DNA from: Candidatus Harrysmithiimonas galli
GTDB lineage: Bacteria; Bacillota; Bacilli; CAJFEE01
Assembly (NCBI GenBank): GCA_904373265.1
Contig: CAJFEE010000001.1
Location: 18,666-82,665, forward strand
Direction of reading: 5' to 3'
DNA length: 64,000 nt
In this document: positions 11,763-42,051 of the stretch, piece by piece
Layout: each line of letters begins with the position of its first letter
Position numbering within the stretch: position 1 is the stretch's first letter
Program-made: the position numbers and the translations under genes
Notes under the pieces: model-generated
Seen by the model: only the letters and a program-made list of their open reading frames with translations
What the model was told of the DNA's origin: nothing
Databases searched by the model: none

Positions 11763-11909
11763 ATGAATGGTTATTGCAAGGATTGTCGATACTGTAAATT
11801 CGGATATTGTACACTGCTAAAAATAGCTATAGACCCTTTTGATACTTGTCGATGGTATGAAGATTTATTATTTCCTCCCTTATCCAAAGAGAATTCACAG
11901 CTTAATTAA
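11763..11909 (+). CDS. 48-aa Cys-rich microprotein (CxxCxxCxxxxC...C)
   Basis: MNGYCKDCRYCKFGYCTLLKIAIDPFDTCRWYEDLLFPPLSKENSQLN; strong GAGAGGTGA RBS 5 nt upstream; lies between a sigE-like promoter and cotJA. Confidence 0.7.
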   Translation: MNGYCKDCRYCKFGYCTLLKIAIDPFDTCRWYEDLLFPPLSKENSQLN

Positions 11910-11956
11910 TTTTTGTCATCCCATTATGTTTTAAATTTTTTGAGGAGGTTATCATT

Positions 11957-12196
11957 TTGAGTGATAAAAAAATTCCAAAATTCACTACACGAAAACCTTT
12001 TGAACAAGCATCTTTTGGAAATGATCCCTGTCCGCCATCTCCTGTTCCAAAAACCTATGTCACTCCCCCTATTTTATACATTGGATTCCAACCTCGAAAT
12101 TTGGAACAATATGACGCCAAAGAAGCTTTAAAATACGGGACACTTTGGCCTATTTTTAACGATCACTATAAAGATCCGTATCATATGAAAGGGTGA
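11957..12196 (+). CDS. cotJA: Spore coat-associated protein CotJA
   Basis: DPCPP..KTYVTPP, FQP.NL.QY..EALK.GTLWP motifs; TTG start after GAGGAGG. Confidence 0.9.
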   Translation: MSDKKIPKFTTRKPFEQASFGNDPCPPSPVPKTYVTPPILYIGFQPRNLEQYDAKEALKYGTLWPIFNDHYKDPYHMKG

Positions 12197-12465
12197 GCCA
12201 ATTGAAAAATACAGCATTGATAGAATACGAACAGCTAATAGAAGATCTACAAGCTGCACTATTTGTTATGCATGATCTAGATTTATATTTGGATACACAT
12301 CCAGATGATAGTGAAGCAATCACGCAATACAATGAATATTATAAATATAAAAAAGAACTGGTTGCATATATTGAAGCCAGATTTGGTCCAATTGAACAAT
12401 ACGCGGAAAATCCGACATCGAATCAATGGGCATGGGCAAAAGCTCCTTGGCCATGGCAATTATAA
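12193..12465 (+). CDS. cotJB: Spore coat protein CotJB
   Basis: LYLDTHPDD, FGP, W.W...PWPWQ motifs. Confidence 0.92.
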   Translation: MSQLKNTALIEYEQLIEDLQAALFVMHDLDLYLDTHPDDSEAITQYNEYYKYKKELVAYIEARFGPIEQYAENPTSNQWAWAKAPWPWQL

Positions 12466-12477
12466 GGAGGCAACCAC

Positions 12478-13047
12478 ATGTGGAAATATGAAAAAGTATT
12501 GCAAAGACCAGTAAAGGTCGGAAAATGTGATGTGAAAATGGCAAAATTTTTAAATTCACTTTATGGTGGTCCAGACGGTGAATTAAGTGCTGCGCTACGT
12601 TATATGAACCACCGATATTCCATGCCAGATCGAATTATCGGACTTTTGACAGATATTTCAACTGAGGAATTGGGACATCTGGAGATGATTGCAACAATGA
12701 TCTATAAATTAACAAAAGATGCAACTCCAGAAGAAATGGCTGCAAACGGACTTGGCGGACATTATATGGAACACGGAAATGGATTATACTACACAGATCC
12801 AAACGGTGTACCACATACGATTACTTACATCCAAAGCAAAGGAGATCCGATTACAGATCTTTATGAAGACATTGCAGCAGAAGAAAAAGCACGTTCAACA
12901 TACCAACATTTAATTAACTTATCTGACGATCCGGATCTAATTGATGGGCTTAAATTTTTACGTGAACGAGAAATTGTACATTCACAGCGTTTTCGAGAAG
13001 CTGTAGAAATTTTAAAAGAGGAAAAATCCAGTAAAAGGATCTTTTAG
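12478..13047 (+). CDS. cotJC: Spore coat protein CotJC (Mn-catalase family)
   Basis: MWKYEK, GGPDGELSAALRY, TEELGHLEM, EDIAAEEKAR, REREIVHSQRF motifs. Confidence 0.96.
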   Translation: MWKYEKVLQRPVKVGKCDVKMAKFLNSLYGGPDGELSAALRYMNHRYSMPDRIIGLLTDISTEELGHLEMIATMIYKLTKDATPEEMAANGLGGHYMEHGNGLYYTDPNGVPHTITYIQSKGDPITDLYEDIAAEEKARSTYQHLINLSDDPDLIDGLKFLREREIVHSQRFREAVEILKEEKSSKRIF

Positions 13048-13065
13048 TCCAACCTAAATATAAGA

Positions 13066-13102
13066 AGGCTCAACAAGTGATATATCTCTTGTTGAGCTTT
13101 TT
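13066..13102 (+). terminator. cotJ terminator
   Basis: AGGCTCAACAAG...CTTGTTGAGCTTTT. Confidence 0.75.
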
Positions 13103-13929
13103 ATTGAAAAATGCATAATCCAACTATAAAATTTTTATTTTTTTAGATAATTTGTCTTTTTCAGATTCGATCACTGGTCTCTGTTTGTACAACAACAATA
13201 CCGATACCTTCCTAACCAACTGACAAACAAACCGCTAATTTACTTTTGTAGTATATCTTACAATGGTATGTCATAGATTTTGATGGGGAAATTGCATAAC
13301 ATATTGATAAACCACCGATTTTTATAAGAATTGACAATTGGAACCAATATAAAAACTCTTGCATCAACCTCTTCAAAAACAACAAACACCCATGCAGACT
13401 TTACCGATATTCCCTATTTGATACATCCACACATAATCAGAAAATATTATAAAAAAATAGAACAAACAGGATCAAAATAAACTGTTATGAATCGGCAAAC
13501 AAAAATGTTCATGATTACAAGAACTGCAATGTTATCTATGTCATCTCAAACGGAATTTGTGTGCAAAAAGATGGTAAGTAAAAACTTTACGCATGGATAA
13601 AAAATAAAAGATGCTATGCTTAAATCTACAGAGCAAAAGAGAGATAAAAAACATTGCTGTAATAGAAAATCAAAATAAATCTGAAAAATACTGACAAAGG
13701 GGGACAAACTGGATTGAACTCCGCCATAAAAGTACAAATCAGTATATTCAAAAATAACTTTCTTAAATATGATTCATTCATAAAATACTTGTAGAAAGAA
13801 ACATAACAGACCCATTTTCACAGGAAGTTGACTCTCCCCACCAAAAAACAAATAGCAAAAAACTATATTTAATTTTTGTCTTTTCTTCATTTCATTTGAT
13901 TGATATGGATACTCGCATATCAGAAACTT

Positions 13930-14154
13930 TTATATAATAGGTTCGCCAGTTTCTTTATCAATAAATGATATTTTTAACTCAGCATTTAAAGCTTCGGCAA
14001 TTTTTTCTAGTTCAGATACCTTAAGCGTGTTTCTTTTAAATTTATTATGCATATTTTGTGGCGTTTGGTTCATTCTTCTTGCCAGCTCTGATTCCGTTAT
14101 GTTTCCTTTTTTCACTCTACATAAACTGATATATTCTCTTATGTCTGTATGCAC
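13930..14154 (-). CDS. XRE/Cro-type helix-turn-helix regulator
   Basis: 74 aa; ITESELARRMNQTPQNMHNKFKRNTLKVSELEKIAEAL HTH; GTG start with AGGAG RBS, 12 nt after the helicase stop. Confidence 0.85.
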   Translation of the reverse strand: MHTDIREYISLCRVKKGNITESELARRMNQTPQNMHNKFKRNTLKVSELEKIAEALNAELKISFIDKETGEPII

Positions 14155-14166
14155 ATTTGTTCTCCT

Positions 14167-15669
14167 TTACCATTCATTTAAAATTGTTTCTTTAAATTTT
14201 TTTATTTCTTCCTCATTATCCTTTATTTCGTTAATTCGCTCACGTAAATCTCTGATTAAACTGGATTTTTTCCTGATAGAATAGTCAATCCGCTCATCTA
14301 CAGACGAATGATAAAGAATGTCTATAATATGGACATTTTTATCTTGACCAATTTTATATACTCTATCCTCTGATTGTGTTCGCTTTGTATAATCATATGT
14401 ATTGTTATAATAAATCATATAATTCGACTTTTGGAGGTTGAGCCCTGTTCCACCAATATTGATATTGATAAGAGCAATATTGATATCCCCATTTATAAAA
14501 TGATCTATGCTCTCTTCTCTTTTTTTCTGCTTTATCTTTCCACTGAGTACAATATGATTCTCTTGTAGAACTTCCTGTAATAACTCCAAATCACTATTAT
14601 ACCTATACCATATAATTTTTTTGGCATCTGGTGGCATATGATTCAGCTCTTGTACAACAGCCTTTGCTTTGTCATTTGTTTTAAATTGAAATCTTGTAAT
14701 CATCTCTTGCTCTTTTAATGGATCGTAATCAATAAAGGTAGCATCGATATAGCCGCTGCATATTCTATGCAAATATCCAATCATATTAAAAATAATAAAA
14801 CTATCAAATTCTTCCAGATTAATTTTATTTAAAAAGTATTCTTTCACAGAATTATAGATCTTCCTTTGCTCCTTGCTCATGTATAAATATCTATTTTGAT
14901 AATTTTTCGGTGGAAGATCAAGACATTCCTTTTTTGTCACTTGATAAATATACGGGTTGATTTTTTGCGTGATGTACTCTATTTTACGACTCCCAATAAT
15001 CATACCTGGATATTTTTTGGAGTACTCTAAATGCCTTTTGGCAAAATCATAAAATGATTTATAGCCTAAAATTCCAGGATGCAAGATATACATCTGGGTA
15101 TATAGATCCCATACTCCATTCGTTATGGGTGTTCCAGTTAATATCAACTTATATTTTGCAAACTTGGATATATTGATTATTCTTTCAGTCCTTTTCGCTT
15201 TACGGTTTTTTATCATATGGCTCTCATCCACAACCAACATGAAATCATTTTTATATTTTTTTGCAAAGCAATAAACCATGTTATAAATACGATCTGATCT
15301 ACTGATACTTTCTATTCCGACAACACAGATATCCTCATTTCCGTATTTCTCTATATCTGCTATGCAAAAAAATGAATGTTTCTTTATATCTTTCTCAAGA
15401 TTTTTTTTTGTATTAATTGGACAAATCCATAGTACATTTTTTATTTTATTGCTCTTCTTTCTATACTGTACAAACTCTAATGTGGTTCTTGTTTTTCCTG
15501 TTCCCATATCCATAAATAATGCGCATGCTTGGATATCCTTTAGCTTGATAAATGCATTTTTTTGATGCTCCATCAGCTCAGTCTTTAATCCTTTCAATCC
15601 TATCGCCTCTGCTTCGTTTTTAAATGAACGACTCTCATGACCTGTCCATAATCTAGTATTGCTTATCAT
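14167..15669 (-). CDS. SNF2-family (DEAD/DEAH-box) helicase, mobile-element type
   Basis: Motif I MDMGTGKT, II VVDESH, III LTGTP, V GGTGLNLQ, VI QSEDRVYKIGQ; also K.ECLDLPPK. Confidence 0.92.
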   Translation of the reverse strand: MISNTRLWTGHESRSFKNEAEAIGLKGLKTELMEHQKNAFIKLKDIQACALFMDMGTGKTRTTLEFVQYRKKSNKIKNVLWICPINTKKNLEKDIKKHSFFCIADIEKYGNEDICVVGIESISRSDRIYNMVYCFAKKYKNDFMLVVDESHMIKNRKAKRTERIINISKFAKYKLILTGTPITNGVWDLYTQMYILHPGILGYKSFYDFAKRHLEYSKKYPGMIIGSRKIEYITQKINPYIYQVTKKECLDLPPKNYQNRYLYMSKEQRKIYNSVKEYFLNKINLEEFDSFIIFNMIGYLHRICSGYIDATFIDYDPLKEQEMITRFQFKTNDKAKAVVQELNHMPPDAKKIIWYRYNSDLELLQEVLQENHIVLSGKIKQKKREESIDHFINGDINIALININIGGTGLNLQKSNYMIYYNNTYDYTKRTQSEDRVYKIGQDKNVHIIDILYHSSVDERIDYSIRKKSSLIRDLRERINEIKDNEEEIKKFKETILNEW

Positions 15670-15674
15670 AGTTT

Positions 15675-15872
15675 TCGTATGAAATTTGCTACATATCAGA
15701 TATTTTGTTTTCCAAAAATCAATTTGTTTGATTTGATGCTCTTTGTTTCACCGATCCACTTGGCAATTGTGTTTCTTGATGGAATTGTAATACAATCTTA
15801 CTACAGATCATACTGGTTTTTTACTTCCTAATTTTTCCAATTTATATCAGACCCAAATATACTTATATTCAT
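15675..15872 (-). pseudogene. Eroded ORF between the ParB-like gene and the helicase
   Basis: ATG overlaps the upstream TGA (ATGA) and reads MNISIFGSDINWKN*, followed by broken frames such as KEHQIKQIDFWKTKY. Confidence 0.4.
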
Positions 15873-16522
15873 TTTATTCCTTCATTGCTTTTTAATCGAT
15901 CCTCAAACTCTTCCCATGATTTACTAAAAACATGATTTTGAAAAGCATCTTTCAATCCAGTAATTTGTTTGAGTCGAATGACCTCATCCAACTCCATTCC
16001 AATTTTTTGGCATATTTCATCGTCTGTCCATCCAGAACGAGTTAAATCAAGAACAATATCACTCATACTTCGGATTCGATGGCTTCCTCTTGCTCGATTG
16101 TGCCGAACTGTGCTTCCCATTCGTTCATCCAACGCTTTATCAATCACAACAACTGGAAGATATCCATTCAATCTCTGATTGATATCTTTATATTCTTTCC
16201 CGATTCTATTTCTATGGAATCCGTCTACAACTTCGTATTCACCGTTTCCTAAATGATAGACTACAATCGGTTGCGTATATCCATCCAGCTTAATAGAGGT
16301 ATACAATAGTTTCATCTCTGGTGGTGCTACCTCATTGGGATTGTATTCGTTGGCTTTCACCTTATCTGCCTTTACCCATATGACAGCGTTAACGGGTTCT
16401 TTTTGTGGGGATATCTCATTTAATTTTATCGTAATATAATTCAGAATTTCTATTTTTTGTTCTAAATCCAATTCTTCTAACTCTATTTTGATTTGATTTA
16501 AAATTTCGTTAATTCTTTTCAT
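15869..16522 (-). CDS. IbrB/YbdM-like ParB N-terminal domain protein
   Basis: ANEYNPNEVAPPEMKLL..SIK.DGYTQPIV, VVDGFHR, TVRHNRARG motifs and a C-terminal HTH; GGAGG RBS before the ATG at 16522. Confidence 0.92.
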   Translation of the reverse strand: MKRINEILNQIKIELEELDLEQKIEILNYITIKLNEISPQKEPVNAVIWVKADKVKANEYNPNEVAPPEMKLLYTSIKLDGYTQPIVVYHLGNGEYEVVDGFHRNRIGKEYKDINQRLNGYLPVVVIDKALDERMGSTVRHNRARGSHRIRSMSDIVLDLTRSGWTDDEICQKIGMELDEVIRLKQITGLKDAFQNHVFSKSWEEFEDRLKSNEGIK

Positions 16523-16523
16523 T

Positions 16524-16873
16524 TTATATTTTCCTCCATAATATATGGTTCTGAGTTTCTCTTTCCACATAAAAACTGAAACTGGTGAAAATTTCTACCG
16601 AACCTGTTTTAAGTAAACCGCTTTTATTCTTTGGTCTATGATTCTCACTGTTAAAATCATAGCCAAATACACATGCTTTATCATCTATAGGCGTCGTGTA
16701 AAATTGTTTATCCCTCTTTTTTGAATAACAATAAAACCATACATTCCCTTCTACTTTTTCCACATCCAACCATCATTTACTAGATCGGACATAATTTTTG
16801 ATATTTTCCATCTAAAAGTCTATAAAATTCTGATTGATCGGAGTGTTATCAAATATTGTTACGAGTATATCAA
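16524..16873 (-). pseudogene. Eroded ORF between the IbrA-like and IbrB-like genes
   Basis: TTG overlaps the upstream TGA after AAGGAG, with early stops; an 81-codon open stretch (16524-16769) ends 1 nt before the next start codon. Confidence 0.45.
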
Positions 16874-18165
16874 TCTACTCCTTTGTTTATCATAGCGGCT
16901 ATATTTTTAAGCTGTTTATCCTCCACATCTTCCGATAATAAGTTTGTATATTTTTTCTTTAATTCTATAATTCTCTGAACATCTGATTTGGTCTGACTGA
17001 AACTCAATCTTTTCATCCAAAAATCATTTTTTTCTATTGCACGGGCAATTCTTCTCCATGAGGCTGCTTTTTTGGCAGACTCCAGTTTTTTATCTGCTTC
17101 TTCTGGAATATCTTTTATGGATAACCCTTCATGTTTCTCAAACCATCTAAAAAACTTTCTAATTTTTTTTACATAGTGATCCCTTAATTCTGGACAATAT
17201 AACCCAAGACTTTCCAACAAAAAGACGGTATACTGTTCCCATGTCAAGTGTCTTGGCTTCTCTGATTTCATGTTTCCTAACAAACTTGTACGACAATATA
17301 TATTTCCGAAATTCGCACCATGTACACGATTCAATACTTTTTCCCATGTTTCTGGCTCTATCATACGAAACTGATCCAACCCATTCCTTTGATCATCACC
17401 ATAAGGTTGACATAGTCTTTGTTCATGGATACTTACACCGTTTTTATACATCCATTCATATACATAGTTATATTTTAAATCCAATTTGGCAATGGTTCCC
17501 CAAATGTCCTCTGTAGAAAAATCATATATCGGATAAAAATTGTATACAGATAATTCCTTCGTCCCATTTTTAACTTTAGTTGTCCATGCATAATTTTTAT
17601 ATCGTATTTTTCTGTTATTTACGATGGTACGAAAACGATTCATACTTTCATCCGAACGGATTCCAATTCCACAGCCAATAATTCCTTCGCTTTTTTTACT
17701 GATCCATTCTGCAAAATATACTGTAAATTCTTCAAATTCCATCCCTTTTTTAAACCAAACCCAATCTTCAGGATAATTCTCTTCTGTAATTGCATTTTTG
17801 GGGATATTTCTTACCCATTTATTTTGATCTGCCTTATCCCAACATATCCATTTTGGCTGAATCACTGAAACAGCGTTTCTTAATGAGATCGGCATAGCAA
17901 CCCAATACCAGTCAGCTACATCATCTGTCTCTTTTCTAAGCTCTTCAATATGATTGATGGTTTCTTTATATTGTGCTTCCAAATCAATGAAAAGCACCCC
18001 AAAATGCTTGTTCATTTTTCGGGCAACCCTTGCAGCAAGCTGCAACATAACAGAACTATCCTTTCCCCCAGATACACATAAATATATATTATTAAACTCA
18101 TAAAAAGCTTGCTCGATTCGATCTGCCGCTGCTTCCAATACATTTTTTTCATCATAGACTTTCAT
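16870..18165 (-). CDS. IbrA/YbdN-like PAPS-reductase family protein (DUF3440)
   Basis: PP-loop SGGKDS, FIDLEAQY, GIRSDESMNR, YPIYDF..EDIW, QRLCQPYG, EPETW..V.NRV.GANF, SWRR motifs; GAGGTG RBS before the ATG at 18165. Confidence 0.93.
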   Translation of the reverse strand: MKVYDEKNVLEAAADRIEQAFYEFNNIYLCVSGGKDSSVMLQLAARVARKMNKHFGVLFIDLEAQYKETINHIEELRKETDDVADWYWVAMPISLRNAVSVIQPKWICWDKADQNKWVRNIPKNAITEENYPEDWVWFKKGMEFEEFTVYFAEWISKKSEGIIGCGIGIRSDESMNRFRTIVNNRKIRYKNYAWTTKVKNGTKELSVYNFYPIYDFSTEDIWGTIAKLDLKYNYVYEWMYKNGVSIHEQRLCQPYGDDQRNGLDQFRMIEPETWEKVLNRVHGANFGNIYCRTSLLGNMKSEKPRHLTWEQYTVFLLESLGLYCPELRDHYVKKIRKFFRWFEKHEGLSIKDIPEEADKKLESAKKAASWRRIARAIEKNDFWMKRLSFSQTKSDVQRIIELKKKYTNLLSEDVEDKQLKNIAAMINKGVD

Positions 18166-18187
18166 ATTTTTCACCTCATCATTATCA

Positions 18188-18224
18188 TAAACATTAACGT
18201 TTAAAAATAAAACGATAACGTTTA
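18188..18224. promoter_or_regulatory. Twin palindromic operator-like sites upstream of the IbrA-like gene
   Basis: AAACATTAACGTTT (18189-18202) and AAACGATAACGTTT (18210-18223), 21 bp apart. Confidence 0.55.
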
Positions 18225-18431
18225 TTTTTTAAAAAAATAACATGAAAACCTTTTACAATGATATTTTAACGACTATAGCATCAAATTATCTTTTAAAATA
18301 AAAAAATTCTAAAATATATATTTTTCAGTTTGAATTTACTATAATTCACATAAAAAGACTTTCTACCATAAATAAACTTGATATGAGAAAGAAGCAAAGC
18401 AATATACATCCTATATTTTTGCATACAAAAA

Positions 18432-18469
18432 AAACAGTGAGATACAGAACAAATCTGTATTCACTGTTT
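18432..18469 (-). terminator. Hairpin / terminator downstream of the secreted protein gene
   Basis: AAACAGTGAGATACAGA-ACAAA-TCTGTATTCACTGTTT with an adjacent A-run. Confidence 0.65.
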
Positions 18470-18590
18470 ATGTGTACATATTTTAATTTAGCAACTATAA
18501 AAAGCTCGTTTTTTCTATACAATTAGAAAATGAGCCTACACGACATGCCTAAGGAAACAACTTCAAATAGAATCCATTCTGACTAGATTT

Positions 18591-19583
18591 TTAAAATAAA
18601 GGATTAAAATCTTGATAGATCGTTCCAATTTCTTCACCGTTTTGATCATATACTTTCAACGTATGACTTCCGACCCAAAAAGTCTTTGTAATGGAAGAAT
18701 CTTCTTCCCATTTTACTGTAATTTTATAACAAAGCTCATTTTGAAAAACTTGATCCTCCATCTCAAGATTAGAAACTGTAACCCAATCATTTTTTAATGA
18801 TCGAATAAAAGCAACCATATAATCTCTTGCATATATAACATCTTGTATTTCTGAACGATCGTTAATAGAAGAATTGATATCAGTTTGATTGCTACTTGAC
18901 CCAGATGAATTGATATGCTGCGGATAATTCGATGCATTGTCTGAGTTTATTGTATTGTTTTGGCTATTGGTTGCATGATCTGTATTTGTTGCATTGCTTT
19001 GACTCTCGGATGTATGATCTGTACTTGTTGTATTGCTTTGACTCTCAGATGTATGATTTGTATTTATTGCATCACTTTTATGATTGGATGATCCGCTACT
19101 GGTCTGTGTTCTTGTAGCTGATGTAGAATTCTCTTGATGACTACCTGATTTTGCAGAGCTTTGTGGCTTAGAATCGGAAGCTATTTTTGATGATGCGGTT
19201 TGATCTGACTGCAATTGATTTAATGTACTCTGAATTTGATCCAATCTTTCTTTTGGTACTTCTTGTGTGTAATTTTTTTCAGAATCTTGAGAAGAAGCAC
19301 CATCTGATTTCAAAATATCGGCAACCGTTTCCCCTTCTTCTGCTTCATCTAAAGATTTTTTCTCGTTTGTGGTCAACTGTGACTCATTTTCCTCATTTGT
19401 TACCTGCTTTTTAGAATCATCTGTATTTCCCCCAGCCGATTGCTTTTGATCAGAATTTTGAATTTTCTTCTGCACTTCTTCTGCTTGGTTATTTTTTTTC
19501 AAATAAGAATAAGACAGATAACCGCTTAAACCCGTAAAAAGAAGCATAATCACAAGCATACCTACTGCAAATTTATTGTTCAT
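18591..19583 (-). CDS. Membrane-anchored/secreted Ser-Asn-Thr-rich protein with a small C-terminal globular domain
   Basis: N-terminal TM helix, long low-complexity linker, C-terminal ~75 aa (CYKITV...FWVGSHTLKVYD); GAGGTG RBS. Confidence 0.8.
   Translation of the reverse strand: MNNKFAVGMLVIMLLFTGLSGYLSYSYLKKNNQAEEVQKKIQNSDQKQSAGGNTDDSKKQVTNEENESQLTTNEKKSLDEAEEGETVADILKSDGASSQDSEKNYTQEVPKERLDQIQSTLNQLQSDQTASSKIASDSKPQSSAKSGSHQENSTSATRTQTSSGSSNHKSDAINTNHTSESQSNTTSTDHTSESQSNATNTDHATNSQNNTINSDNASNYPQHINSSGSSSNQTDINSSINDRSEIQDVIYARDYMVAFIRSLKNDWVTVSNLEMEDQVFQNELCYKITVKWEEDSSITKTFWVGSHTLKVYDQNGEEIGTIYQDFNPLF
18975..19072. repeat. 39-bp tandem repeat (about 2.5 copies; 13-aa unit TDHTSESQSNxTx)
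   Basis: ATGATCTGTATTTGTTGCATTGCTTTGACTCTCGGATGT / ATGATCTGTACTTGTTGTATTGCTTTGACTCTCAGATGT / ATGATTTGTATTTATTGCAT. Confidence 0.9.
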
Positions 19584-19786
19584 ACTTTCACCTCTTATAT
19601 TCCTAATTAAATCGTACAAAACAATACCATAAAAAGCAATCTTTTATTTCGTTTATAATAAACATAATATAAAAAATGCCTGAGTACACATTTCCCAGAC
19701 ATTTTCTTGATTTTCTTAAAAAAATTGATTTCCAATTCAACTTTACTTTGTTTTTGTCCGATAAAATTTTACTGGTTCACTCAGTC

Positions 19787-21541
19787 TTACAATACATTCG
19801 TATGCCCACTTAAAATATAGCCACGTGGTGAATCTACAGTTACATCCATTCCTTCTTGTAAAATTGTAAGCGCATCCTTTACCCCAACAATCACAGGTTT
19901 TCCCAAACTGACACCAATAATGGCTGCATGTGAAGTCAAACCACCTTCTTCAGTAACAATGGCACAAGCTTTTTCAATGGCTGGCATCATTTCTTTATCT
20001 GTTCCTGGTGTGACCAATATGGAATCTGCTGTTACATTTTTATTTGCATCTTTGGCATCGTAGGCTATGACCACCTTTCCAAACGCACTCTGACGACCAA
20101 TTCCTTGACCTTTTGCCAAAATATCCCCAACATAATGGATTTTCATTAAATTTGTTGTTCCGCTCTCACCAATTGGCACACCGGCTGTAATCACAACCAA
20201 ATCTCCTGGCCTGACCATCTTTGTGTCCAACCCTTTTTCAACTGCAAAATCTAGCATCTCATCTGTTGTTTTAATATCGGGGCCAAGCGCAGGTATAACA
20301 CCCCAAACAAGCATTAAAGAACGCATAATATGCTCAGAGGAAGCAATTGCAAGAATGGAAGCCGCAGGACGATATTTTGCAATCATTTTTGCGGTATGTC
20401 CACCTTGAGTCGGTGTTAATATACATTGAATTGGCAAAGAGCGAACAGTCTGCGTAACAGAAATCCCAATAGCATCTGTAATATTCTCCGTTTTATATTT
20501 TAAGTTTCTTTCCATTTTCTCTTTAAATTCTGTGGATTCTTCTGTTTTCATTGCTATTTGATGCATGGTTTCAACTGCCTGAACCGGATATTGTCCTGCA
20601 GCAGTCTCACCAGAAAGCATCACCGCATCTGTTCCATCAAATATTGCATTGGCTACATCAGACGCCTCTGCTCGTGTTGGACGTGGATTTCTTTGCATGG
20701 AATCAAGCATTTGCGTTGCCGTAATTACTGGCTTACCAACCCGATTACATTTACGAATCATTTCTTTCTGAACAATTGGAACCTCTTCTGCTGGAATTTC
20801 TACACCTAAATCACCACGTGCAACCATCAATCCATCAGAAACCTCCAAAATCCCATCCAAATTTAATATCCCTTCTCGATTTTCAATTTTAGGGATAATT
20901 TGAATATATTCGCCACCATGATCTTCCAATAAATTCCGGATCTCCAGTACATCAGACGGTTTTCGAACAAAAGACGCAGCAATGAAATCAACACCTTGTT
21001 TGATTCCAAATAAAATATCCTCTTTATCCTTTTCTGTAATTCCTGGCAATCCGATTTTTACATTGGGAATATTCACACCTTTTTTATTTTTAATAACACC
21101 ACTGTTTAAAACTCTTGCAACAATTTCATTTTCTCGTTTTTCAGTAACCTCTAGCTCAATCAAACCATCATCAAGCAAAATTCTTGATCCCGTTTGTACA
21201 TCATGAATCAAATCAGGATATGTAACAGAAAACTTTTCTTTTGTACCCGAAACAGGCAGCATAGAAATGATAACCTTAGATCCTGCTTCCAATGTTTCTT
21301 CACCATGGATAAAATCATGTGTACGAATTTCTGGTCCTTTGGTATCCAATAAAATAGCCACAACCTGATTCATTTTTTTTGCAGCTGCACGAATATTTTG
21401 AATCCGAATGGCATGCTCCTCATGTGATCCATGGGAAAAATTCAATCGAGCTACATTCATTCCCTTTTGGATCAACTGACATAATATTTCAATATGCTCA
21501 CTTGCTGGACCAATTGTGCATACAATTTTTGTTTTACGCAT
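19787..21541 (-). CDS. pyk: Pyruvate kinase with C-terminal PEP-utilising domain
   Basis: [56 protein letters not shown]. Confidence 0.99.
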
Positions 21542-39688: not shown

Positions 39689-40903
39689 TTATAACAGATT
39701 ATCTAGTCCGTTTACATTTGTTGATTCATTTTGCTTAAAAGTCAAAGTTTCAATGCCCTGCACAGCTTGGTGTAACAAAGGTTTAAAATCAAATTTGCTT
39801 TCAAACCAGGCACATTTCTCTCGTTTCGGTCGTGTTGTTGGATGATCAGGCAAAAAAATGGTACAGCAATCTTCATAGGGTCGAATCGATGTTTCATATG
39901 TTCCAATTTTTATGGAAAGATCAATAATTTCAAGCTTATCCATCGCAATGACCGGACGCAGCACTGGAAGATCAGTTACTTCGTTAATAACATACATAGA
40001 GTCAACCGTTTGTGACGCAACCTGTCCTAGACTCTCACCTGTTGACAGTACAAGTGCTTTTCTCTTTCGTGCAAATTCCGTTGCAATCCGCAGCATCATT
40101 CGACGCATAATGGTCATTGTATAGTTGGCAGGAATTTCCTTGTGAATTGCTTTTTGTATTTCTGTAAATGGAACCAAATGCAGTTTCATTTGCCGATTAT
40201 ACTTGGTTAAAATTTTAACCAAATCAATCACCTTCTCTTTTGCTCGTTCGGATGTAAACGGCGGACTATGAAAATGAATACACTCTACATTTACACCTCG
40301 CTTCATCATCAAATAAGCAGCGACAGGACTATCGATTCCACCTGATAAAAGCAGCAAAGACTTACCTCCAACACCGACTGGATATCCTCCCAATCCATTT
40401 CGTTGTTGACACATCACATAGGTAAAATCTGGACGAACCTCAACTTTAATATTTACATTTGGATTTTTTACATCAACCTGTAGCGCACCGTCCAATTGAA
40501 TGAGAACATGTGCACCAAGTTGTTGCTGCAGTGCAAATGTATCCAACGGGAATTCTTTATAAGCACGATGAACTGAGATTTTGAATGTTTTTTTTCCGTT
40601 TTTCAGCGCTTCCTTGGCAGCCTCTAGTACATGCTCCTTCATGGATTGTAGATCAGTCACAGTACGCACTGCCAAATCAAATTTATGAATACCAAATACC
40701 TCTTCCAATGCATTCATCACATCTGTCTGATTTTCTCCGTTTAAAAAAATATACATACGATCACGTGTTGATTCATATTTTAAATGAGAAAATTTTTTCA
40801 ACTTAACAGAGATATTTTCTCGCAAAAATGTAATAAATTTTTTTCTGTTTTTTCCTTTTGTTGTCAATTCACCATAACGAATTAAAATCAAATCATATTT
40901 CAT
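39689..40903 (-). CDS. thiI: tRNA 4-thiouridine synthase ThiI
   Basis: IRYGEL..KGKNR, THUMP domain, LLSGGIDSPV, GESLGQVASQT, EDCC. Confidence 0.98.
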   Translation of the reverse strand: MKYDLILIRYGELTTKGKNRKKFITFLRENISVKLKKFSHLKYESTRDRMYIFLNGENQTDVMNALEEVFGIHKFDLAVRTVTDLQSMKEHVLEAAKEALKNGKKTFKISVHRAYKEFPLDTFALQQQLGAHVLIQLDGALQVDVKNPNVNIKVEVRPDFTYVMCQQRNGLGGYPVGVGGKSLLLLSGGIDSPVAAYLMMKRGVNVECIHFHSPPFTSERAKEKVIDLVKILTKYNRQMKLHLVPFTEIQKAIHKEIPANYTMTIMRRMMLRIATEFARKRKALVLSTGESLGQVASQTVDSMYVINEVTDLPVLRPVIAMDKLEIIDLSIKIGTYETSIRPYEDCCTIFLPDHPTTRPKREKCAWFESKFDFKPLLHQAVQGIETLTFKQNESTNVNGLDNLL

Positions 40904-40908
40904 TTTTG

Positions 40909-42051
40909 TTACCTCATCATATCTTGAATTTGTTGAACAATATTTGGAAATACCTGCATCACTTGCTGAGCTTGTACTTCTGTATTTTCCGAAGAAAAAC
41001 TAAACCGTAAACTAGTACGCGCTTCATTCTCTGATCTACCCATCGCCAATAAAACATGAGATGCATGATTTTCTTTAGTAGAACAGGCGGAACGGGAAGA
41101 AATATAAATTTCATGTTTACTTAATTCCTGAATCAGCACCTCTGGCTTAATATCAGAAATCGAAAGATTTAAAATATGCGGCGCAGCATATTGAAGCGGC
41201 GTGTGGATTGTTACATCTTTTATTTGCAACATTTCTTTTCTAAGATAATCCTGAATTCCCTTTATCTGTACTCTTTTATTTTCCACATCTTCCAATGCCA
41301 AACGAAGTGCCTTAGCAAATGCCGCAATTCCTGGTAAATTTTCCGTACCTGCACGCAATCGCATTTGCTGTCCTCCGCCTATTATTAATGGAGACAAACG
41401 AATCCCATTTCGTACATAGAGCAAACCAACCCCCTTTACACAATGAAATTTATGTCCAGATAAAGCATATAAATCAATTCCGCAATCATGTAAATTCAAA
41501 GGAACTTTTCCGATTCCCTGCACACCATCCACATGAAAAATAACAGTCGGATAAGCTTGCAAAAATGCACCAATTTCATGTATTGGCTGAATGGTTCCAA
41601 CTTCATTATTTACATGCTGGATGGAAACCAGGATGGTTTGATCTGTCAGAGCAGCCTTTAAATCATCTAAACAAATACGCCCCTGATGATCTACAGGCAA
41701 ATAAGTAATATGAAATCCTTGTGTTTCCAATTGCTTACACACTTGTAAAACGGAAGAATGTTCTGTGCAAGTGGTGATGATATGATTCCCTCTATTTTGA
41801 TATTGATAAGCCACACCTTTAATGGCCATATTATTACTTTCAGTTGCACCCGAGGTAAAAACAATTTCTTTTGGCTGGATTTGTAAAAGCTGTGCCACTT
41901 GCTGTGTCGATTTGCGTAAAAGCGCTTCAGCCTGTTGTCCCAATGTATGAAGAGAAGAAGGATTACCAAAAAAACGCTGAGAAACCGTTACATAGGTATT
42001 TAGAACCGATTCATTTGGAGCAGTTGTCGCACTTTGATCAAAATATATCAC
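40909..42051 (-). CDS. iscS: Cysteine desulfurase (IscS/NifZ type)
   Basis: YFDQSATT, GNPSSLH, FTSGATESNN, SGHKF, RAGTEN, SACS. Confidence 0.96.
   Translation of the reverse strand: MIYFDQSATTAPNESVLNTYVTVSQRFFGNPSSLHTLGQQAEALLRKSTQQVAQLLQIQPKEIVFTSGATESNNMAIKGVAYQYQNRGNHIITTCTEHSSVLQVCKQLETQGFHITYLPVDHQGRICLDDLKAALTDQTILVSIQHVNNEVGTIQPIHEIGAFLQAYPTVIFHVDGVQGIGKVPLNLHDCGIDLYALSGHKFHCVKGVGLLYVRNGIRLSPLIIGGGQQMRLRAGTENLPGIAAFAKALRLALEDVENKRVQIKGIQDYLRKEMLQIKDVTIHTPLQYAAPHILNLSISDIKPEVLIQELSKHEIYISSRSACSTKENHASHVLLAMGRSENEARTSLRFSFSSENTEVQAQQVMQVFPNIVQQIQDMMR

Follow-up and report, generated by a model that had tools for sequence, protein, structure and literature searches.

We analysed a stretch of 64,000 nucleotides from Candidatus Harrysmithiimonas galli (assembly GCA_904373265.1, contig CAJFEE010000001.1, here C1; C1:18666-82665), referred to throughout as the window, in which four intact open reading frames (ORFs) lie in one orientation on the minus strand at window positions 13930-18174. 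In the order of transcription they encode an IbrA-like PP-loop enzyme, an IbrB-like protein, a SNF2 helicase and a small Cro/C1-type helix-turn-helix (HTH) protein. An original prediction, made from the letters of the sequence, had taken the four for a tightly coupled, stand-alone DNA-modification or anti-phage system under its own repressor. The number, strand and coordinates of the genes agree with our ORF listing; our preferred reading of what they are is another one, namely that the locus is a mobile phage cassette, probably stranded in its present host and partly eroded.

The IbrA-like ORF spans 16870-18174 (GTG at 18174, 434 aa), and its likeliest start is the ATG at 18165, which has GAGGTGA upstream and gives a gene of 16870-18165 with a PAPS-reductase-like N-terminal domain followed by DUF3440. 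For the IbrB-like ORF (15869-16570), the likeliest start is the ATG at 16522, with GGAGG upstream; the resulting 217-aa protein (15869-16522) combines a ParB/Srx-type N domain, which holds the motif DGFHR, with an HTH and, at the C terminus, a tail for which binding to IbrA is predicted. The helicase ORF (14167-15669; ATG at 15669, 500 aa), with its SNF2-rel_dom and Helicase_C domains, probably begins at TTG 15597, where AGAGG lies upstream and the position matches the start in all relatives, giving 476 aa (14167-15597). The HTH gene (13930-14154, 74 aa; HTH_26, E 9e-6) starts 12 bp after the helicase stop, which its ribosome-binding site overlaps, and judging by this arrangement it is translationally coupled to the helicase gene. 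The predicted tight coupling therefore stands for this last pair and fails elsewhere, since 347 bp separate the IbrA stop from the IbrB start and 271 bp the IbrB stop from the likely SNF2 start.

The window IbrA matched DUF3440 (PF11922) at E 2e-28 (99.6 bits against a Pfam cut-off of 25), PAPS_reduct (PF01507) at E 3.5e-14 (53.7 bits against 22.5) and, end to end, phrog_2302 at 1e-81, and it is ~40% identical to an E. coli phage copy. The PP-loop SGGKDS occupies residues 35-40, and a RLCQPYGDDQR motif is also present. Among 64 sequences, S35, G37, K38, D39, S40, R253, C255, Q256 and P257 are invariant, all of them retained in the window copy; C255, in RLCQP, is the one invariant cysteine, and it lies past the end of the PDB sequence alignment of IbrA in which it might be set against the catalytic cysteine of CysH. 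In Foldseek searches with the AlphaFold2 (AF2) model (predicted local distance difference test [pLDDT] 82.8), the N domain of ~250 residues matched APS/PAPS reductase, CysD, FAD synthase and TtuA-type PP-loop enzymes, and the C-terminal DUF3440 part gave no match. Against NCBIfam, IbrA scored below the CysH equivalog cut-offs (cysH, 19.5 against 165.1; PRK02090, 32.9 against 154) and far under the CysD cut-off, and no Dnd or Ssp (DndC-type) model was found at E ≤ 0.01. Its only PADLOC match was to BrxP, with 23.6 bits over residues 17-85, the PP-loop.

IbrB matched ParB_N at E 1.4e-6 (28.6 bits against a cut-off of 26.3) and phrog_2159 at 2e-73. Its DGFHR lies at residues 100-104, with D100, G101, H103 and R104 invariant in the family, so that both motifs named in the original prediction, this one and SGGKDS, are present and invariant or nearly so. 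The top Foldseek matches of the AF2 model (pLDDT 86.6) were Noc, ParB and KorB, over the N domain and the HTH (141-167 columns; E 2e-8 to 5e-7), and the KorB-KorA repressor complex was among the best by TM-score (TM 0.51, root-mean-square deviation 2.7, 145 columns); Srx, SbnI and a serine kinase matched the N domain only. The predicted fold thus resembles the NTP-binding domain plus HTH of the CTP-dependent ParB/Noc/KorB clamps, with differences: DGFHR and RHNRARG stand in place of the ParB boxes, and the ParB-type C-terminal dimerisation domain is missing, the C-terminal tail being predicted to bind IbrA. A PDB sequence search with the IbrB profile placed designed helical-repeat proteins on top, which we regard as spurious, with ParB/Noc weaker at 1e-4 to 2e-3. 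No PADLOC model matched IbrB.

Complex prediction with IbrA and IbrB gave an ipSAE interface score of 0.67 (0.69, 0.67 and 0.65 in the individual runs) compared to 0.00 for the best control. In the calibration of this score, 58 of 80 solved complexes and 2 of 110 mismatched pairs attained that mark, a yardstick that is rough here because custom alignments were used. The runs shared at least 70% of contacts, with partner pLDDT values of at least 69. In the modelled interface, the IbrB tail (residues 186-212, with the invariant F194, F199 and W203) packs against residues 3-15 and 218-249 of IbrA, and the model supports binding of the two proteins through the C-terminal tail of IbrB.

The helicase matched SNF2-rel_dom at 6e-27, Helicase_C at 1e-13 and phrog_62 at 9e-104, and its motifs I (GTGKT), II (DESH) and III (TGTP) are intact. 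In motif VI (QSEDRVYKIGQ), K439 takes the place of an arginine that all 47 cassette relatives have (consensus QsedR.hRiGQ). As a measure of conservation, we took the columns that are at least 95% conserved among relatives and counted those retained by the window copy. IbrB keeps 47 of 47 and IbrA 79 of 80 (the departure is W219F); the helicase keeps 27 of 29, having lost the second motif VI arginine (R439K) and carrying N229K, and two or more such departures were seen in only 4 of its 47 relatives. On this comparison the SNF2 motor is suspect. In PADLOC, the helicase matched only the helicase cores of the longer ZorD and DpdE profiles, and the partner models were not matched.

We compared the locus with related cassettes from 11 genome loci and 80 of 262 confirmed IMG/VR loci, to which five phages and one plasmid were added as annotated regions, and built neighbour profiles on 94 fetched loci. 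The IbrA-IbrB(-SNF2) combination is widespread. By tblastn, IbrA matched 223 of 50,697 phage records, in 41 of which a single place covered at least 80% of the query; going by the first word of their organism names, the matching records comprised 90 Flavobacterium, 60 Mycobacterium, 21 Streptococcus and others. Many gut bacteria and E. coli K-12 also have the genes, as do at least 262 IMG/VR stretches. IbrB accompanied IbrA in 93 of the 94 loci. A same-strand SNF2 gene lay within 3 kb in 56 of these 93, or in 36 of the 61 whose flanks each extended for at least 3 kb, and in an independent sample SNF2 was adjacent in three of four other Bacillota genomes with DUF3440. The helicase linkage that had been predicted is thus upheld, and these neighbourhoods support IbrA, IbrB and SNF2 as a conserved functional unit. 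The fourth gene fared differently: in none of the 94 other loci is the cassette followed by a homologue of the window HTH. In 45 of the 94, an ORF of 45-140 aa does begin between -40 and +90 bp from the last cassette gene. Of 41 distinct trailing ORFs, 8 match MazE/AbrB-type folds, and HTH_3, HTH_26 and HTH_31 are each matched by 5, with overlap among these three sets. Small DNA-binding genes therefore recur at the 3′ end of the cassette but are interchangeable, and the window HTH may be the cassette's own repressor.

The related cassettes fall into two fixed gene orders. In type 1, a Zn-ribbon protein precedes SNF2, IbrA, an optional GNAT-fold protein of 120-160 aa and IbrB, often followed by a small HTH or AbrB-like ORF; the ~380-aa first protein, with its N-terminal Zn-ribbon-like motif, belongs to phrog_16123, was found in 35 loci and had no named relatives in the Atlas. 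In type 2 (13 loci, including Clostridioides difficile CD160), the order is IbrA, an optional GNAT gene, IbrB, a 170-aa protein and SNF2, with genes that overlap or lie a few bases apart and a tightly coupled 170-aa gene. The window follows the type 2 order, and its SNF2 is 52-54% identical to type 2 copies and 32-42% identical to type 1 copies. The small protein between IbrA and IbrB gave only sub-threshold Pfam hits (0.012-0.029); in the Atlas, clusters named as N-acetyltransferases matched it with a feature score of 0.97 and GNAT clusters with TM values of 0.63-0.90, and it has a GNAT fold. An intact gene for it occurs in 24 loci, and 4 have it as a fusion with IbrA or IbrB, namely the IbrA-GNAT fusions of loci L004 (9995-11713), L041 and L046 (564-572 aa) and the 771-aa IbrB plus GNAT protein of L076. 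At the level of gene architecture, these natural fusions tie the three activities together. Two further arrangements were seen by eye: in L101 (G262:C2, 591-5971), from a Bacillota genome, the SNF2-IbrA-IbrB trio directly follows genes resembling a cas operon, with Cas2- and Cas1-like N termini, and in L102 (13070-14626), from a different genome, an ORF resembling a type I methylase subunit comes after the pair.

All close relatives that could be placed belong to phages, prophages or a plasmid. In Clostridium phage phiCs5676-1, Lactobacillus phage CR28 and CHPC1230, the cassette comes after the endolysin and before the lysogeny or early module; it adjoins an integrase in L025 and L028, and follows ThyX-like and dCMP-deaminase-like genes in L029 and L036, lying before a terS-like gene in L029 (names read by eye). 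Mycobacteriophage Nebkiss has it in the replication region, beside a short helicase. A complete, overlapping type 1 cassette (L017; NZ_CP019656, 57957-63126) sits on a 103-kb mobilizable Paenibacillus larvae plasmid and comprises a 394-aa Zn-ribbon protein, a helicase, a DUF3440 protein, a 138-aa GNAT-like protein, a ParB protein and two small ORFs. Among 118 downstream ORFs from 68 representative loci, Pfam tallies, which are per family and may overlap, showed Phage_integrase (6), Resolvase (2), HNH (3), terminases (Terminase_3 3, Terminase_2 2, Terminase_6N 2; 7 in all) and lysins (Amidase_3 3, Amidase_2 2, Glucosaminidase 2; 7 in all). IbrA and IbrB are also reported for phage FCL-2, which lacks an integrase and a repressor and in which lysogeny has not been detected (PMC4541368). 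From where its relatives lie, the cassette is therefore, by gene neighbourhood, a mobile phage module and not a host defence island.

In the host lineage, the genes are rare. IbrA is single-copy in the genome and was absent from all 60 relatives sampled within the same class, and across the phylum 5 of 401 genomes, the window genome included, have its DUF3440 domain; the absence from those 60 relatives supports the view that the IbrA-IbrB-SNF2 unit is accessory and horizontally spread. Its neighbours in the window, as the original prediction correctly stated, are a CotJC-like gene of the Mn-catalase family (12478-13047, plus strand) and, on the other side, a 342-aa gene (18591-19619) next to pyk (19787-21541, minus strand); these are housekeeping genes and not a defence island. 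That no integrase or phage structural gene lies in the window also holds for the five families tested, and no tyrosine integrase was found anywhere on C1. Serine recombinases, an HK97-type capsid gene and a TerL gene are present on C1 at 123-146 kb, outside the window; they point to a separate prophage ~87 kb from the island, with no link to the cassette seen in the sequence.

The window contains no tRNA genes, and its G+C profile shows no clear break at the island. A flanking inverted repeat (13125-13154 and 18282-18311; 30 nt, 24 of 30 complementary) was discarded, as 13 of 30 shuffles gave an equal or better match. An empty-site comparison also failed: in the sole same-family genome (G001), cotJC and pyk are ~690 kb apart and there is a homologue of nothing that lies between them in the window, so that without synteny the insertion borders cannot be drawn. 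At the DNA level, a search returned nothing beyond patches of 93 nt from 9 Streptococcus phages and one Paenibacillus plasmid with 29% cover, and in 13050-13930, 15598-15868 and 18175-18590 matches to the 170-aa gene or to other phage genes stayed at chance level.

The two long gaps of the window copy fall where relatives have accessory genes. Between IbrA and IbrB, at 16524-16845 on the minus strand, lies a probable GNAT-fold pseudogene made up of ORF81 (16524-16769) and a remnant of the N-terminal motif (16783-16845). In alignment with the GNAT-fold protein, ORF81 covers its C-terminal two thirds, and the GNAT profile scored ORF81 at 8.7 bits (p 1e-4), a weak match; tblastn with the small protein of L013 against the gap gave E values of 5e-4 to 7e-4. 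The N-terminal remnant lies just past the IbrA stop, in the IbrA frame and not that of ORF81, and is broken by stops (p 0.016). With the pieces in the right place and order, the gap is likely to be what is left of a GNAT gene, as far as sequence comparison can tell. The second gap, of 271 bp (15598-15868, minus strand), is the site of the 170-aa gene (the 'Y148' family) in type 2 relatives; no remnant of that gene was found in it, with matches at chance level only.

Near-identical DNA turns up in sequencing runs. By index matching only, 0.99-1.00 of the sampled words of 13900-18300 were found in 14 runs of 7 studies, mostly chicken-gut metagenomes, some of which may be the source of the assembly. 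Four metatranscriptome runs from two studies contained 0.31-0.86 of the words, and contigs from these RNA libraries cover the genes, one of them spanning 15308-18421 and with it IbrA, the remnant, IbrB and the 5′ end of SNF2; some parts of the island had no RNA contigs, for example 17937-18297 in X16-X18. In X15, contig depth was 288.7 over 11800-14384, 8 in the island core, 81.7 in the 342-aa gene and 17.5 at pyk, and this unevenness argues against uniform DNA carry-over. No variant was listed in the contigs for the K439 codon (14353-14355). Indels after 15255 and 16002 were each seen in single low-depth RNA contigs, in T-runs, and were taken as assembly noise. All four RNA-library runs have three extra T after 13260 and several single-nucleotide polymorphisms relative to the window, and the sampled populations therefore differ slightly from the assembly.

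Taken together, these data lead us to favor, with a probability of roughly 0.55, the reading that the locus is a horizontally acquired mobile phage cassette, stranded without mobility genes and partly eroded, whose products act on DNA. Its phage origin, its status as a stranded copy with a kept core and decayed accessory genes, and the partnership of IbrA with IbrB are reasonably supported. As for how such a cassette might work, IbrB would be a ParB/Noc/KorB-like DNA clamp that binds a nucleoside triphosphate (NTP), contacts DNA with its HTH and holds IbrA by its conserved C-terminal tail, and IbrA would be a PP-loop enzyme that adenylates a substrate with ATP. The GNAT partner, where present, would transfer a group onto the adenylated substrate, and the SNF2 motor would shift the complex along duplex DNA. 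The likeliest outcome would be a covalent mark on DNA, or else a remodelling of DNA-bound proteins, from which the phage would benefit by protection of its DNA or by the switching on of genes; the host remnant would perhaps have only part of the cassette's activity. In our analysis, a covalent DNA mark is the first choice, because of the parallels to Dnd, Ssp and BrxP (PMC10853773 and PMC12839542), the fused GNAT and the carriage by phages without sign of lysogeny; a KorB-like regulator is its main rival. The fullest form of this proposal, in which IbrB as an NTP-gated sliding clamp carries IbrA along DNA with the aid of a dedicated SNF2 motor, joined in full cassettes by the GNAT-fold transferase, and in which these together write an undescribed modification of DNA or a DNA-bound protein that controls the protection or expression of phage DNA, and in which the window copy is trimmed, expressed and kept by its host, is tentative, and we would not expect all of it to hold.

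Several observations weigh against the favored reading. The likeness of ORF81 to GNAT proteins is weak (8.7 bits), and most type 2 phage copies have no GNAT gene, which makes its 'erosion' thinly supported. Retention of the conserved residues could mean recent arrival instead of selection, and with R439K and its lost partners the copy may be inert. DNA can be present among RNA-library contigs, which carry no strand information and do not prove a single transcript. The IbrA-IbrB complex is a computed model, and the mechanism is drawn from folds, motifs and synteny. No biochemical activity of IbrA or IbrB was found in the full texts searched, nor any mechanistic study of IbrA, IbrB, YbdN, YbdM or DUF3440. 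The one phenotype known to us comes from Sandt and colleagues, who in 2002 reportedly found that E. coli IbrAB activates prophage eib genes, an effect on expression and not a DNA mark.

This last point belongs to the alternative that comes closest, and which we consider doubtful: that the cassette regulates phage or prophage expression, with IbrB as a KorB-like clamp that opens or counter-silences promoters, IbrA as its ATP-using cofactor and SNF2 as a RapA-like helper of RNA polymerase. Besides the eib phenotype, the database name 'co-activator of prophage gene expression IbrA/IbrB' and the presence of the KorB-KorA complex among the best fold matches of IbrB speak for it. Several phages have the cassette just before the terminase genes, a position where late activators of Gram-positive phages often sit. 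Also in its favor, E. coli ybdNM is described as repressed by the LysR factor YbdO/CitR (PMC9068703). Yet a pure regulator would have no need of the invariant SGGKDS site, nor of a GNAT enzyme sometimes fused to IbrA, and there are no known target sites.

Comparison with E. coli places the window copy among known pairs. IbrA/IbrB of the ECOR-9 island and YbdN/YbdM of K-12 belong to the same two families and are likewise adjacent and co-oriented; phage copies are annotated IbrA/IbrB, and the pair of phage PhiR5_2 has no SNF2 partner, unlike that of the window. YbdNM is under a LysR repressor, as opposed to the Cro-type HTH of the window. The phage cassettes (phrog_62, phrog_2302 and phrog_2159; for example phiCs5676-1, CR28 and the IMG/VR loci L025-L037) share the same three core families, with identities to the window of 63-72% for IbrA, up to 71% for IbrB and 52-54% for SNF2. 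They differ in that their genes are tightly coupled and include additional Zn-ribbon, GNAT-fold and 170-aa genes, whereas in the window two of these genes are decayed or absent, the small HTH is a different one and no phage genes are nearby.

The reading of the original prediction, a stand-alone host system for anti-phage defence or self-marking by DNA modification, with its own HTH repressor and DndC-like sulfur chemistry fed by IscS, appears unlikely to us. DndC/DndB and SspD/SspE pair PP-loop with ParB-fold families, and the pairing of IbrA with IbrB parallels theirs: in these systems and in the window, as with BrxP, a PP-loop or PAPS-reductase-like ATP pyrophosphatase stands with a ParB-fold DGxxR protein in a DNA-directed system. 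IbrA also has its invariant C255, and several prophage copies occupy the 'moron' position between lysis genes and integrase, a frequent home of prophage-borne exclusion genes. The role of DndB is treated in PMC10853773 and the use of a PAPS reductase by BREX type 4 in PMC12839542, and a 2026 preprint lists candidate defence clusters with a nucleoid protein, a PAPS reductase and a ParBc protein (10.64898/2026.04.06.716658), which favors a defence role. On the other side, no PADLOC system fits the locus, and the island has no DndA, DndD, DndE, SspB, SspC, PglZ or BrxC genes. No Dnd/Ssp phosphorothioation genes were found among the ORFs of 13050-18590, with no DndC-, DndD- or DndE-type match for any island ORF, and the one invariant cysteine of IbrA contrasts with a cysteine cluster or dyad, the latter being described for DndC (PMC10853773 and PMC12839542). 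BREX type 4 is not indicated either, since the BrxP match is partial and no other BREX model matched an island ORF; the same applies to Zorya, Dpd and DISARM, whose partner models found no match in PADLOC.

The gene neighbourhoods point the same way. The cassette lies among housekeeping genes in the window and inside replication regions in phages, and its carriers include phages without sign of lysogeny. The prediction had allowed that it would fail if the block were always embedded in replication modules of prophages or integrative and conjugative elements, and phages, prophages or a plasmid are indeed where its placeable close relatives lie. Nor was the idea of a conserved four-gene unit with its own repressor supported: the HTH is not a conserved member, although non-homologous small DNA-binding ORFs often take its place, and two accessory genes are decayed or lost. 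The proposed sulfur donor, IscS, lies 22 kb off and is paired with thiI, and IbrA matches no DndC-type model. This cysteine desulfurase gene adjoins that of the ThiI tRNA sulfurtransferase (39689-42051), which is a usual housekeeping pair.

The remaining alternative, that the locus is dead debris whose three ORFs are open only because too little time has elapsed, is very improbable: two accessory genes are decayed or lost, mobility genes are absent, SNF2 combines N229K with the change of the motif VI arginine to lysine, and IbrA W219F falls within the predicted interface, but ~3.4 kb of coding sequence is free of stops, IbrB and IbrA retain 47/47 and 79/80 conserved columns, near-identical copies occur in runs of 7 studies, and RNA-library contigs of two studies cover the genes at depths unlike those of the neighbours.

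This kind of cassette is already known, and the window copy is a degraded member of it. Added here are the predicted IbrA-IbrB interface with named residues, the ParB/KorB-like fold of IbrB, the two fixed gene orders, and the GNAT-fold, Zn-ribbon and 170-aa cassette members. The window copy itself is a poor exemplar, being eroded, set in phage-free surroundings and burdened with a suspicious substitution in its motor; its value is as another host that keeps the IbrA-IbrB core as accessory parts decay.

Around the cassette, the AT-rich region upstream of IbrA (18166-18590, minus strand) is the presumed promoter region. A scan for consensus promoters and terminators stayed at chance level: promoter-like sites numbered 33 (35.6 expected) and terminators 2 (2.0 expected). 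Rfam had no match over 12900-19800 at E ≤ 1. On the far side of the HTH gene, 13048-13929 is an 880-bp stretch free of ORFs and Rfam matches for which RNA-library contigs are present in all four runs. RNA contigs of two studies stop within the 3′ end of SNF2, at 14371-14387 in X15, X16 and X18 and at 14411 in X17. The segment from 13048 to ~14400 may be a separate transcript unit with the HTH gene, or cotJ read-through, the contigs being strandless. The 342-aa protein encoded beyond the AT-rich region had no family match and was not found after pyk in the sister genus; it has an N-terminal membrane segment and a Ser/Thr/Asn-rich middle that derives from three 39-nt tandem repeats (18927-19043), and the contigs of its gene are comparatively deep in the RNA libraries (36-82).

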